Assembly (NCBI GenBank): GCA_965285935.1
Contig: OZ260661.1
Span: 100,006,001-100,070,000 of the forward strand
Direction of reading: 5' to 3'
DNA from: Ophelia neglecta
Lineage: Eukaryota
Length of the DNA stretch: 64,000 nt
The notes below the pieces were generated by a model. The model was not told where the DNA came from and searched no databases. It saw nothing but the letters and a program-made list of their open reading frames with translations. Position numbers and translations under genes: made by a program. This document shows, piece by piece, positions 4,084-10,200 of this stretch. Position 1 is the stretch's first letter. Every line of letters starts with the position of its first letter.

Positions 4084-4756
4084 ATGTTGGCCGCCAAGTC
4101 CCCCTACGACCCCAATGCGAGTGGGGCCTACTCGATGCCCAGCATGACTATGGGGTCCACTTCGATGTCTTCGATGCCCATGAATTCCATGGCATACAGC
4201 AACATGGGGGGCATGGGCTACAATCCTCAGGCAGCCATGTCTCAAATGAGCTCTATGCACGGGACGACAGGCATGAGTCCCGGCATGGGAGGCTCTCCCA
4301 TGGGCGCCATGGGTACGATGATGGGCACCCAGGCCATGAATACGATGGGCGGAATGAATATGGGCATGAACGGCATGGGACAACCGGCGGGCTTGGGCAT
4401 GGGCATGACGGGCGTCAACTGTATGACAGGGATGACCGGCGGGCCCATGTCCCCCGTCTCGCCTGGCATGGGGGCTATGAACAGCATGAACAGCATCAAC
4501 CGCGCTCGGGAGAAGACCTACCGGCGCTCGTACACCCATGCCAAGCCACCCTACTCCTATATCAGCCTGATAACCATGGCTATCCAGAACTCTCCTAGCA
4601 AAATGTGTACCCTTAGTGAGATCTACCAGTTCATTATGGACCTGTTTCCATTCTACAGACAAAATCAACAACGTTGGCAAAACTCCATCAGGCATAGTCT
4701 ATCCTTTAACGACTGCTTTGTCAAAGTGCCTCGTTCTCCGGACAGGCCGGGTAAAG
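4084..4756 (+). CDS. foxA: FoxA (forkhead/HNF-3) transcription factor, coding exon 1: Met/Gly/Ser-rich N-terminus and most of the forkhead domain
   Basis: ACCATG start with an in-frame TAA upstream at 4066. Translation contains [81 protein letters not shown], diagnostic of the FoxA class. Ends at donor AAAG|GTGAGG (phase 1). Confidence 0.97.
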
Positions 4757-5307
4757 GTGAGGACATATTTAATTCTCATTTATTTCCATTACAATGATTA
4801 GTATCAATACGGTCTTAAACCCGTCTGCTCTAATTTTAAGCCCTAGCATGTATTTATTTTTCAATATCAGGTTTGTCCCAACGTTTTTATTGTAAACATT
4901 GTGTCACGTTCTTTCCACAATATTTGAAAGCCTCTCCATGATCACAGTATAGGCCAGTACAGGCGTACTAGTTGATAGGCGTGCCTCAGAATAACATAGG
5001 TGTCAATTGCAATTTAAAATTTTGGCAAGTATGGCATCTTTCTGCGAAGCACATTTTGTGCTTAAGACGAGTTTCACATCGCCGGCTTCATGTGGCACAA
5101 CCACGAGTAGGCCTACGTGTTATCGGCTTCGGACTATACAAATTAAAGGAAATTAAACAAAAAACCGGTGCCAAGAAATAGTAACATCAGCTAATTGATA
5201 CTCAGTAATTTTCCAATGGGAATTGGTGGCAAATTCCATTTTCTACCTTTAAATTATTCTTTGAATTTCTGTAGACTAAAACAACTATTCTATTGGTTAT
5301 TTTGTAG
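4757..5307 (+). other. foxA: FoxA intron, 551 nt, GT-AG, phase 1, interrupting the forkhead domain at PGKG|SYW
   Basis: Donor GTGAGG at 4757 and acceptor TTATTTTGTAG ending at 5307. Splicing restores GGA-TCC-TAC-TGG (G-S-Y-W) in frame. Confidence 0.95.
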
Positions 5308-6086
5308 GATCCTACTGGACCCTTCACCCTGACTCGGGCAATATGTTCGAGAACGGCTGCTACTTGCGACGTCAGAAGCGTTTCAAGTGTCCGAAGAAGG
5401 AGACAATTAGACAGGCGCAGAAGACATCCTCACAGACGGTCACGAGTCCCGGGGGCACTCCCCTCGAGTCTGCCGACTTGAACGGCTCTCATGAAGAAGA
5501 CCCAGACAGTGAGGATGAAGGTGACTATAAGCCACAACACCTGGATCCCCAGGTGAGCCAACAACAGCAGCAGCAGCAACAACAACAGCAACAACAGGGT
5601 GGGCCAGACAGCCATCTGCCTCCCCAGCATCAGGGCCATCCGCAGCACCCTCAGCACCATGGGGGTGTCAACTCCGTCGATACTACCTCGCCCCTCAACC
5701 GCCAGCCTAAGGTGGAACCCGGCGATATGCCAGTCTCTACGGCCCCCGGCATGATGCCCAGCCAGGCCCAGGCGCCCATCTCCAGCGAGGGACATATGCC
5801 TCTCCGGCCCATGACCCACGACGGCAATTTGGCTCACATGCACCATCATCCGGCGATGATGATGAACGGGCAACACTTCAACCACCCATTCTCCATCACG
5901 AACATTATGTCTGCAGAATCGAAACAGCAAATGGACTTGAAAATGTACGAGCAAATGCAGGGGGCCTACCCGACATACGGTCAGATCTCACCAGTGTCAC
6001 ACATTCCGAAGGAGGGAACACCAATGCCAGGGGGTGATGGCAACTACTACAAAACATACACCCCCCACTCGACCGCCGGCTTGTGA
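5308..6086 (+). CDS. foxA: FoxA coding exon 2: end of forkhead domain, polyQ, EH1 motif, C-terminus; spliced protein 483 aa
   Basis: Reads [28 protein letters not shown] (FoxA wing 2), then HPFSITNIM (EH1/HNF-3 region II, 5883-5909), and ends [16 protein letters not shown]. Exons of 673+779 nt give 1452 nt = 484 codons. Confidence 0.97.
5559..5597 (+). repeat. Mixed CAA/CAG tract encoding 13 consecutive glutamines in FoxA
   Basis: caa caa cag cag cag cag caa caa caa cag caa caa cag, in frame. Confidence 0.95.
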
Positions 6087-7265
6087 CTAGAGGAACTCTA
6101 GGCTAAACAAGGCGGAGAGCACTCAACTCTGTCACTAACTCTTTTCATCACAGCTCATGGAGGCACGAACTCTTCACAAATTTGCCAGTTCCAGGGTAGA
6201 ATTGCGGTTCTAACCGGGAACTGGTCACCTCGTTCAGAAAGCAAAGAACAGTCTACCTTAATAATCCCAGAACATACGACAGTTCAGGAACTTTCTCGAT
6301 ATGGTCTTTACAATGTGGAGGCTACATCGTATACTCAAACACTTTGTGCTACAAATCGTTTTATGTACGTTAAAATCATCGTCTAGATGAAGTGTATACC
6401 AAAGATAATCTGTGTCAATGGACTCGGCGACTCACATAATGAATCTAGGGTCTATGTACTGCATTTTCACAGATAACAAAGCTGACTCTAAACAGTTCTA
6501 AAGTGATTAGCAAAGAGATTGATAATTATTGAGTATTGTACAATAAGGAACTTTCTACGCAATATTTTGATGTCAGCGCGATGAATCCGTATCTCAGTTT
6601 ATTTTGTTGAAGCCATGCTGAACAACTTCACTTTTGTGCAAAGGCATGTAAGTTGAGTTTCGATATTTGTATTCAAAGCTGCCTTTATTATTTAGGCCCA
6701 ACAATGAACAAGGAACCAGGCTTTTTACTTTAAATTATTAGCTCAAATTATGGTCTATATTTTAATAACAAATGAATAATTTCCTCAAGTGTTAAATTGT
6801 ACAAATTTCTGCATTGCTGCTTTTTATTTGAATATGGATCTGTGTTTAATTATATTGGAGTTTAAGCTGTATATATTTCGGTAGATTGGGAAACACGATG
6901 TAAATGTTTTAGACTCCTTTTCCCAATTCTAAAATTATTATTATTATATATATATATAGAGTTAGATTGATGTGATTTCTATTTCGAGATAGACATATAG
7001 ATCATGAATTCAAATGTTTTTTGCAAGTAATGGTTGCTTCATATATATGTTGAATATATAGAAAATAAACGCTGTTGCGTTGACAATTTATATGGACTCT
7101 TTGGAGGTTTATTTTTGTTCGGTTTAATGACATCCAAATGTGGGAATAAACATTCATATTTTCTCTAAATATGCATATTTTCATCTCAATGTAAATTCAT
7201 CTGTCCAAGTATTCAGTGTTTATATTGTCGATATGGCCATTAAATGAACAAATATCATCAATGAA
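6087..7265 (+). other. Probable FoxA 3' UTR
   Basis: Increasingly AT-rich after the stop; Pumilio-type TGTATATA at 6868; ends at the poly(A) signal candidates. The end is approximate. Confidence 0.55.
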
Positions 7266-7285
7266 AATATTGTTGTTGCTCGCTT
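7064..7285 (+). terminator. Candidate FoxA polyadenylation signals
   Basis: AATAAA at 7064 and 7145; ATTAAA at 7239 followed about 30 nt later by a GU/U-rich tract (TTGTTGTTGCTCGCTTTT). Confidence 0.5.
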
Positions 7286-10200
7286 TTATATATATATTAT
7301 ATAGATGTATGTATATAATGTGTATATCTATATAGGCCTATATGTACATAATGCTACATATACTCGAACAGATTTAAAGTGCGTGTTGAGCTAGGCCAAG
7401 ATTCAGTTACTTAACTTATTACGAGGGCCGATTTCAAATCGAGACGGCAAAAAAGCCTTATTCTTGTGAAACATGCAGACTCCATTTTGTTTGTAATTGT
7501 TTGGTGCAAAATAGAAACGTTAAAGCCGCAGTGTGTTTAATTCGAGCCTGTAGTTTTATCTTAGGCTAAGGCCACACAGAGATATGAAGTACTATCTTAC
7601 CTAGGTATTGGTTGCTAGGCTCGCGTGAGCCGAATTTTGTGGCGTAGATTTGCATGCTAGATAAGGCCGCCATTTCAGCCATAACGGGAGGGGGGGCACG
7701 ACTTAAAGCATTGTGCCTATATTCACGCGCACAAAAAAATATTGGCCGGCTGGACAGAAACCGGCATGTAGCTTCAATTGTATGCATAAAGATATCGGTT
7801 TTATGTTCGGTTCGAGGAAATTCCTGCTGTTTCATATAATTATCCAATTCCTAATAACTACTCTGAAATTTACATAATTCACCGCGAACAGGTATACACA
7901 TCTGCAATAAGTAAGCCATTGTTGTGTATTCCTGCGTCTGCGCGCCGGAGTGACACCTGCCATATTTGGAGCACTTGTCAGCCGAGCTTATCTGGCGGGA
8001 ATTTCAGCTGACAGCAGGTTGAACTTGACATACCCCCGAAACCCCAAATAACCGTATTGCACCATAGCAACTAACATAATTTGACTTCCCGTTTATAGAG
8101 ATATTTTGGGACTAGTGACACAGTAATGTCAAATCATTATCCTTTACTCGTGAATAAATTAGGTAGATTATAAAATTGGCTTGTGCTAAAATACACCACA
8201 CCAATTACAGTACTGCGGCGACCTTAAGGGGTTGCAGTCACGATATAGTCTACCCTAAAATATCAATTTCGAACTAGGGAGCTAATATAATAGAGAAACC
8301 ATGTATAGTTACCCAATCACTCGCTTCATTCTGAAAAGTCGTTCGAGGTAACCAGGAGACACAGGTTGATGTAATACCTTTAGTTATAACCGGCTTAAAG
8401 ATATCGGGAATATAGAGCCATGTTCTAATATAGGTCTTAGAGTTTTATTATACACTTGACCTTACTTAGATTCACTAATTTAAGAGAAAAAAATCTTATC
8501 ATTAGCAAGAGTTGATACTTTGATATATGAAAATGTTGTTGTTTATTGTAGCAATGATTAATCACAAGATATAATTAGATAAACATTAACTGCATGGGAG
8601 GTTTTCTAAATCACTATTTCGCCCATTTAGTCCTGTAGCCCAAGACATGCAGGCCTTTATACCATTCACAGAACAGGCTAGTAAATCATAGCGGCTTAGG
8701 CCGCCATCATAACATTGGACTCGCTATACGATTGTTGTTGTTCCACTTAAAGTATTATTTCACTGGAGTGAAAAATCGTGTAAGGTGATAAGTACTTTTC
8801 ATTCACTCTCGGTATCGCCACAAGCTTATAAAAATATGGAAACATACTGCTCAATATTTTCAACACAAATTTGAAAATACAATGACACGGAACTGTATGA
8901 AAATGCGAAAAACAAATAAATTTCATTCTTGAATAGCAGGTCGAAGAAGAGAATTGGTGTACACCGGGCAACTGGTTAGTAGAAAGAACATCAGATTAGT
9001 GTGTTGACACCTAGGTTGGCACACAAAATAATACACAGATTTTAGCGCAATTATTTTCTAAAACATTGTTTTTTCAGGGTTTAGGTGATTATACTGAGAA
9101 ATGGCTCGCGACAGGAAACAAACGAATACCTTAGAAAAATAATCTCTGATTTTTTCTTGGGGCCGTTTACTTTAGTGTTCTCAGCTCAATTTTCTTTTCT
9201 TCTGTCTGGGGAGGTTAAACATTGGCGCTTGCGGACACAGTAGATACTTACCATAAGTCGATGGGGTGGTGGGCACGGCATTTACCGCACATTGATCACA
9301 GAACAATGTGTTCTTTAATCAACCACTACCATATTAAGAATTGTTGTCATCTACCATTGTTAAGGTCATCAACAATTAAGGATTATGCTTTATAATCCTT
9401 TCACTCGTTTAACATGTTGTTGTAGCCTTTATCCAGCATATATAAGCTTTGATGCCCCCTTTGTGTTTAAGGTGAGAAAGACTACTTAAGGCTTAGTACA
9501 ATTATAATTGATCGCGATGGTTTCGAAACGGTCGTCTGCCGATATGCCCATCCGTTCAAAGTCCATCAGTTGTTTATGTCGTCTTAATTTCTTATTTCAA
9601 ATGTGTCAACAAGCTTGCTGTGAAGTCTGGTTGTAGAATTGTGATCTTATGTACCAGGCCTATTTATTATTAACAAAATTTATATCGAAATTGTTCTACT
9701 TTTCGTACATTGTTACTTTGAAAATAATATTGGTTCCAACAGTTGCTATACGTGCATGTAGGCCTGCGCAAAAAGGTAACAAAAAAAGACATCTGCTTTG
9801 CACCTGAAATTGGATTTGTTTTATTTATAGGCCTACTTCCGAATCGATTTTTTTACTATTTTGCTTAAAACATCAGATATAAATTTAAAAGGCCTTATTT
9901 GTGTACAACTTGTTTATTGATCCTTGGCTAAGACCATGGTTCAAAATGAAATTCAGCAATTGCTATTTCACATAAGTTCATCTTCAATTTTTATTTTTGT
10001 GCAGAAGTGATTTAATACAGGTACAAGCCAGGCTATAATACACCATCCATATAATTTGAGGCCTATATACAAATCGTGCGTTCGTTAACGCCTGTGGCCC
10101 AATAGCAGACGACTTTGGATTGATCTTTTCCCGCCGAGATGGTCCTACACCCACAATGAAGCCGAGGTCGATGGTAGGGTCGCGCAGTTCACTCGATGTA

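Follow-up and report, generated by a model that had tools for sequence, protein, structure and literature searches.

A FoxA gene that ends in UGA-CUAG: a probable short readthrough, and a 94-codon open run beyond it that is most likely 3' UTR

Does translation of FoxA end at the first stop codon, or do some ribosomes continue into the in-frame sequence that follows? In the window (the whole 64,000-nucleotide stretch of DNA analyzed here), the last FoxA codon is followed by TGA-CTAG, by the codons for L-E-E-L, by TAG-GCT, by 94 open codons, and by TAG 6384. The bases directly after TGA 6084-6086 are CTAGAG, and those after TAG 6099-6101 are GCTAAA. An earlier note had taken this arrangement for a candidate double readthrough, in which a stem-loop after the second stop accompanies a tiered set of FoxA isoforms. 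The TAG at 6099-6101, the 94 codons open from 6102 to 6383 with the peptide quoted in that note, and the TAG at 6384-6386 have all been verified. The features of the locus are:

4084..4756, + strand: FoxA coding exon 1, with Forkhead_N and most of the forkhead domain (PF00250, E 9.4e-32; PF08430, E 1.4e-08); the start codon at 4084 is assumed
4757..5307, + strand: GT-AG intron within the forkhead domain, the sole in-frame GT/AG join among the joins tried near both ends
5308..6086, + strand: FoxA coding exon 2, with the HNF_C motif (PF09354, E 8.2e-10) and the C-terminus conserved in the family, closed by TGA 6084-6086
6084..6090, + strand: UGA-CUAG leaky-stop motif, recognized from the sequence and as defined in the excerpted text of PMC4132726
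6087..6101, + strand: putative first extension L-E-E-L and the second stop TAG, at the place where the related protein P0121 ends W-L-E-Q-L; the same bases form a perfect inverted repeat, 6 bp around a 3-nt loop at 6093-6095 (pair probabilities 0.90-0.94)
6102..6110, + strand: 9-nt spacer ahead of the stem, A-rich, with purines at 6 of 9 positions
6111..6133, + strand: weak predicted 7-bp hairpin with two G-U pairs and a 9-nt loop, -6.7 kcal/mol alone, without a pseudoknot partner
6102..6386, + strand: in-frame run of 94 open codons, most likely a stretch of 3' UTR that lacks stops by chance, judged from chance controls, codon use and homologue searches
7064..7150, + strand: two AATAAA hexamers (7064 and 7145), candidate poly(A) signals by sequence that would place the whole region in the 3' UTR

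The gene consists of two exons on the + strand, and splicing 4084-4756 to 5308-6086 yields a protein of 483 aa. Given this model, with its start assumed at 4084, the isoform sizes of 483, 488 and 583 aa proposed earlier follow arithmetically. Forkhead_N, Forkhead and HNF_C all score above the Pfam cut-offs and the best named matches are FoxA proteins, which identifies the gene as FoxA; the best named matches of exon 2 are FoxA proteins from molluscs, brachiopods and annelids, and a quick tree, too coarse to settle the phylum, groups the protein loosely with Capitella. The animal is probably a lophotrochozoan, perhaps an annelid. The conserved terminal motif lies within 7 residues of the protein end in 44 of the 48 relatives retrieved (molluscs, annelids and kin). 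Within the 762-Mb genome, which holds 54 forkhead matches, the FoxA 3' region occurs once. Forkhead genes also stand in tandem clusters in this genome (G000), at C12 45.19-45.28 Mb (8 matches), C9 28.62-28.63 Mb (3) and C5 24.02-24.10 Mb (3). One contig, found in one of three sequencing runs (one sample, one study), spans 5930-6840 and differs from the window at one base, A>T at 6764, leaving 6087-6386 unchanged; it probably derives from the source individual and hence carries no weight as population evidence.

At the first stop, UGA is followed directly by CUAG (6084-6090), the arrangement that characterizes type II readthrough. Excerpts of PMC4132726 give readthrough of 7-31% at UGA-CUAG in four mammalian genes and of 1.5% with UGA-CUA alone. 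The nearest relative found, P0121, is 69% identical to the window protein across exon 2, with 94% identity in the last 72 residues and about 60% in the linker; the tree distance between the two is 0.19, compared with about 0.12 for Lottia-Patella and about 0.26 for Dreissena-Mya. The predicted protein P0121 ends TAGL-W-L-E-Q-L at the place where the window reads stop-L-E-E-L-stop, so that three of the four residues and the position of the stop match. The W is most likely a TGA translated as tryptophan by the gene caller, TGG being the alternative, because records from the same source show W where their cluster mates end (P0123/P0234 and P0239/P0140). The P0121 gene thus seems to carry TGA, four codons for L-E-Q-L, and then TAA or TAG. 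In three control pairs with 84-98% C-terminal identity, 0 of 5 post-stop codons were common, and the 9 codons at the end of the intron, just ahead of exon 2, read by eye, have no residue common to P0121 and the window. This comparison comprises one relative at the protein level, and P0121 extends as far as the second stop. From that predicted protein, a conserved, meaningful and lineage-restricted readthrough of five residues at UGA-CUAG is judged marginally probable.

A wider comparison was made with FoxA-like loci in metagenomes. The scan gave 43 loci, none of them close (best segment identity at most 66%, for matches covering most of the query), and removal of 13 duplicate or truncated loci left 30. 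TGA-CTA occurs in 0 of these 30 other, more distant loci; thus, the motif is not ancient. In one group of related loci, whose C-termini are 60-79% identical, 8 to 14 of 15 post-stop bases are kept although the loci have no second stop in common; conservation beside a FoxA stop therefore need not mean readthrough. A TGA-CG(T/C)CA sequence is kept after the stop of the matched ORF in L011, L014, L015, L018, L027, L028, L030, L037, L038 and L042; most of this group carries the palindrome TGACGTCA, which is often repeated further on, and the next ORF runs for 5 to 73 codons. The palindrome, which we take to resemble a CRE site, may be a UTR or DNA element. Among prokaryote genomes, the pattern of the FoxA C-terminus plus TGA-CTAG was found 0 times, and a second scan gave 1 distant FoxA locus, with TAG-CCG; a scan of viral contigs gave none. 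A contig of a metagenome-assembled bacterial genome (L127) carries an animal FoxA 3' end whose UTR opens with a short tandem repeat, and this is probably host contamination.

The behavior of the metagenome group bears on a second reading of the first 15 nt after UGA, namely that no meaningful readthrough occurs at either stop, that these bases are kept as an RNA hairpin or UTR element, and that CUAG and L-E-[E/Q]-L are by-products. Positions 6087-6101 do form a perfect 6-bp inverted repeat, and the sole residue that differs in P0121 maps to the loop codon at 6093-6095. Furthermore, excerpts of PMC4132726 report downstream coding signatures in only 4 of 23 human UGA-CUAG genes. However, CUAG is itself palindromic, so two copies of it account for four pairs out of six; judging from portions of PMC13517186, the hairpin would sit in the mRNA channel during decoding of the UGA; and UGA-CUAG promotes readthrough whatever preserves the motif (PMC4132726, in excerpt). 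An RNA or UTR element in place of readthrough is regarded as fairly unlikely.

A functional product of 583 aa would also require passage of the second stop. Programmed double readthrough, by way of UGA-CUAG and then of a UAG aided by the hairpin at +13, would create a functional FoxA with a new C-terminal tail of 100 residues. The stem itself is as the earlier note described it: beyond a spacer of 9 nt, 6111-6117 pairs with 6127-6133 over 7 bp that include two G-U pairs, and this is the minimum-energy fold of 6102-6200. Its position falls within the range of viral stimulators (excerpts of PMC13517186), and its pair probability is at least 0.9 in 3 of 5 windows beginning at 6102. As a whole, the 99 nt from 6102 to 6200 fold no better than shuffled sequence (z -0.17; 83 of 200 shuffles as stable); a 49-nt piece gives z -1.57, with 15 of 200 shuffles as stable. 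The window has 1,425 stop triplets with a comparable local GC, and 373 of them are followed within 45 nt by an equally stable fold. When the fold must also begin 7-11 nt after the stop, the number drops to 54 (3.8%), which is the best point in favor of double readthrough. A longer hairpin at 6184-6225, inside the run, is the most stable local fold (-23.4 kcal/mol in the 70-nt window at 6167); it is too distant from either stop for viral spacing.

The likeness to gammaretroviral UAG-G readthrough that the earlier note saw breaks down in context, spacer and structure. The type III contexts named in the excerpted text of PMC13517186 are UAG-GGV, UAG-GUA and UAG-GAU, and the stop here is UAG-GCU; the 8-nt purine-rich spacer of that class, with G at 1 and 5, is replaced by 9 nt with G at 1 and A at 5. 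The compact two-stem H-type pseudoknot by which the class is defined (PMC4178896 and PMC13517186, in excerpt) has no equivalent, since the longest pairing available to the hairpin loop within 6134-6260 is 4 bp, ending at 6197, about 60 nt downstream. In MuLV, disruption of either stem lowers readthrough 27- to 65-fold, as given in portions of the same two papers. UAG 6099 is not a member of the gammaretroviral class. Its +4 base is G; according to excerpts of PMC13278127, all validated readthrough elements had C at +4, and baseline readthrough in Drosophila and mammalian cells is about 0.5-2% even with the favorable C.

The length of the open run was compared with several chance expectations. 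The earlier note had set the probability of such a run at roughly 0.3%, which proves too low: base composition gives 0.49% for 94 open codons, and when the stretch itself is shuffled by dinucleotide, 320 of 20,000 versions (1.6%) stay open as long. In 264 kb of genome (the window with 200 kb of flanking sequence), a background that includes real exons and repeats, 94 open codons follow 193 of 29,789 stop triplets (0.65%), or 53 of 7,456 (0.71%) at a matched GC of 0.40-0.46. Control genes were taken from the same genome and comprised the 29 best other forkhead loci and the 30 best rhodopsin-type receptor loci. In 3 of these 59 genes the ORF after the second in-frame stop runs for 99-109 codons. 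The three are L105 (G000:C1:72968966-72972811), L101 and L078, and their codon scores lie near or below zero; the layout of L105 (TGA-C, 4 codons, a stop, 99 codons) is nearly the same as that of FoxA, and in L101, TGA-C precedes open runs of 90 and then 105 codons. A receptor gene, L118 (G000:C1:53300614-53304405), ends in TGA-CTAC with a second ORF of 21 codons and is the sole TGA-CTA among the 59 controls.

Eleven controls were dropped (2 ending in an intron, 9 near-duplicates), leaving 48 genes, of which 3 have a long third ORF. In these genes, runs of at least 94 codons fill 4 of 288 slots (second and third ORFs, three frames). Frame 0 holds three of the four, an excess put at about 0.11 by hand that is not callable as significant, and all four have codon scores at or below zero. 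Among FoxA-like loci of other animals, 29 of the 30 were measurable for the run after the second stop, and it reaches at least 94 codons in one (L005, 99 codons), L006 being next with 82. Because chance reaches the length of the run in 1-5% of controls, the second tier of readthrough is doubtful, and the 94 codons beyond UAG are most likely ordinary 3' UTR that lacks stops by chance.

The composition of the run points the same way. GC at third codon positions falls from 0.73 and 0.68 in the two FoxA exons to 0.35 in the run, close to the 0.37 of the 94 triplets that come next. Codon models were trained on the 48 control genes; by these, the run in frame 0 has a per-codon score of -0.05 to -0.09, compared with +0.18 to +0.34 for the last 94 codons of FoxA. 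No more than 1-5 of 48 coding ends have a score that low, and 27-52 of 144 UTR windows have one that high. Frames +1 and +2 of the run score about equal to or better than frame 0, so a coding-like composition specific to the frame is lacking by a test that is weak on 94 codons. For the first half of the run alone, the score is close to zero (+0.06 to -0.04), and in tests on a single genome true readthrough regions have scores intermediate between those of coding sequence and of UTR (PMC5100048, in excerpt).

Searches for relatives of the extension peptide gave no match at E<=10 among proteins of near length and, in line with the earlier note, which recognized no domain in it, no Pfam family. 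A full HMMER scan returned 30 matches, 29 of them on the FoxA part; the remaining one, a repeat-rich unrelated protein (E 4e-4, residues 77-123), was rejected as a homologue. A search of the genome itself for a paralogue found only the extension and one match at E 0.11. An orphan extension would give the same blank searches. The last 7 residues of the run have a mean hydropathy of +2.0, and hydrophobic tails are a trait of noncoding-derived peptides that get degraded (excerpts of bioRxiv 10.1101/2022.07.20.500724). Two other forms of expression were considered: an independent downstream ORF was rejected since the only in-frame ATG is at 6363, and Rfam over 5900-7400 gave 4 matches, all far below gathering scores and none of them a SECIS, which speaks against selenocysteine recoding.

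The run might instead belong to an alternative last exon, with TAG 6099-6101 serving as acceptor for the in-frame, donor-like CAG/GTGAGC at 5552/5553, so that the FoxA C-terminal motifs would be replaced. The two sites are in the same phase. However, the pyrimidine fraction upstream of the TAG is 0.41 vs 0.71 at the real acceptor, two further AG dinucleotides lie at 6089-6092, the residues at the donor are not kept in P0121, and codon use is UTR-like; this splice is considered extremely improbable.

When these observations are brought together, programmed double readthrough has in its favor that a long run follows a probably leaky stop, that run and hairpin are jointly rare (about 1% and 3.8%, respectively), and that excerpts of PMC5100048 list double readthrough in 35 of 353 Anopheles readthrough candidates. 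Against it stand a UAG-GCU outside the listed type III contexts with a 4-bp loop partner as the nearest thing to a pseudoknot, the UTR-like GC3 and codon use, the lack of a homologue, the equally long runs in 3 of 59 controls, and the statement in the excerpted part of PMC5100048 that abundant readthrough was not found outside Pancrustacea. The case for double readthrough of FoxA is weak, and its programmed form is quite unlikely. Its boldest version, a two-step lophotrochozoan cassette comprising a conserved UGA-CUAG, a four-codon hairpin linker that holds the second stop, a structure-assisted UAG and a 94-codon tail, with three FoxA isoforms that differ in their C-terminal activation regions, would likewise be surprising.

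The reading preferred here, and considered reasonably probable, is that the UGA-CUAG of FoxA leaks as far as UAG 6099, adding five residues, and that the 94 codons beyond are 3' UTR open by chance. Most ribosomes would stop at UGA and release the 483-aa protein. At UGA-CUAG a near-cognate tRNA would outcompete release factor, presumably as in mammalian cells, and a few percent of ribosomes would then read on, add X-L-E-E-L and stop at UAG 6099 to give 488 aa. This UAG, followed by G rather than C and without a pseudoknot, would be expected to terminate efficiently. Consequently, any 583-aa product would be a by-product formed in traces, at a rate of a few percent multiplied by well under about 1%, and its hydrophobic tail would favor its removal. 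Thus, of the tiered isoforms proposed earlier, the 488-aa form made by readthrough of UGA-CUAG is backed by one relative, and the 583-aa form made by readthrough of UAG falters on a run of chance length, UTR-like codons and the lack of a homologue; a functional 583-aa isoform is highly doubtful, as the tests applied to it came out either neutral or negative. These gradings are judgements and were not computed.

If the preferred reading is correct, a leaky stop that adds five residues to a fraction of FoxA would be a simple tuning of a pioneer transcription factor. As a lead, a short readthrough at the UGA-CUAG of FoxA is modest but testable; the 94-codon run alone deserves little attention unless comparative data show that it is kept open. 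The literature searched (mostly open papers, with excerpts of PMC5100048 and PMC13278127, whose supplementary candidate lists could include fork head) yielded no report of FoxA readthrough. PMC8365472, judged by its excerpt, is not on natural readthrough and was set aside.

Several known systems resemble parts of this locus. Like FoxA, the vertebrate genes OPRL1, OPRK1, AQP4 and MAPK10 (excerpts of PMC4132726) have UGA-CUAG at the end of a cellular gene and a short extension to a nearby in-frame stop. Their motif, however, is conserved across vertebrates with measured readthrough of 7-31%, whereas the FoxA candidate has one relative and four codons and is known from sequence alone. The double and triple readthrough of Anopheles and Drosophila (PMC5100048, in excerpt) shares with FoxA a succession of in-frame stops with an open region after each. 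Those calls use coding signatures from multiple genomes, whereas the FoxA case comes from a single genome of an animal that is probably outside the readthrough-rich clade; the same excerpts indicate that, beyond insects and crustaceans, functional readthrough is probably scarce. MuLV gag-pol (portions of PMC4178896 and PMC13517186) is similar in having UAG followed by G and a stem about 9 nt downstream. However, the MuLV stop is UAG-GGR, its 8-nt spacer is rich in G, and the structure after it is an H-type pseudoknot of two stems; in FoxA the stop is UAG-GCU, the 9-nt spacer is A-rich, and what follows is a single weak hairpin in which two pairs are G-U. FoxA also resembles vvl and traffic jam in being a transcription factor of development that may have an isoform extended at the C-terminus, here a candidate. 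In Drosophila, both of these genes reportedly produce readthrough isoforms with functional extensions.
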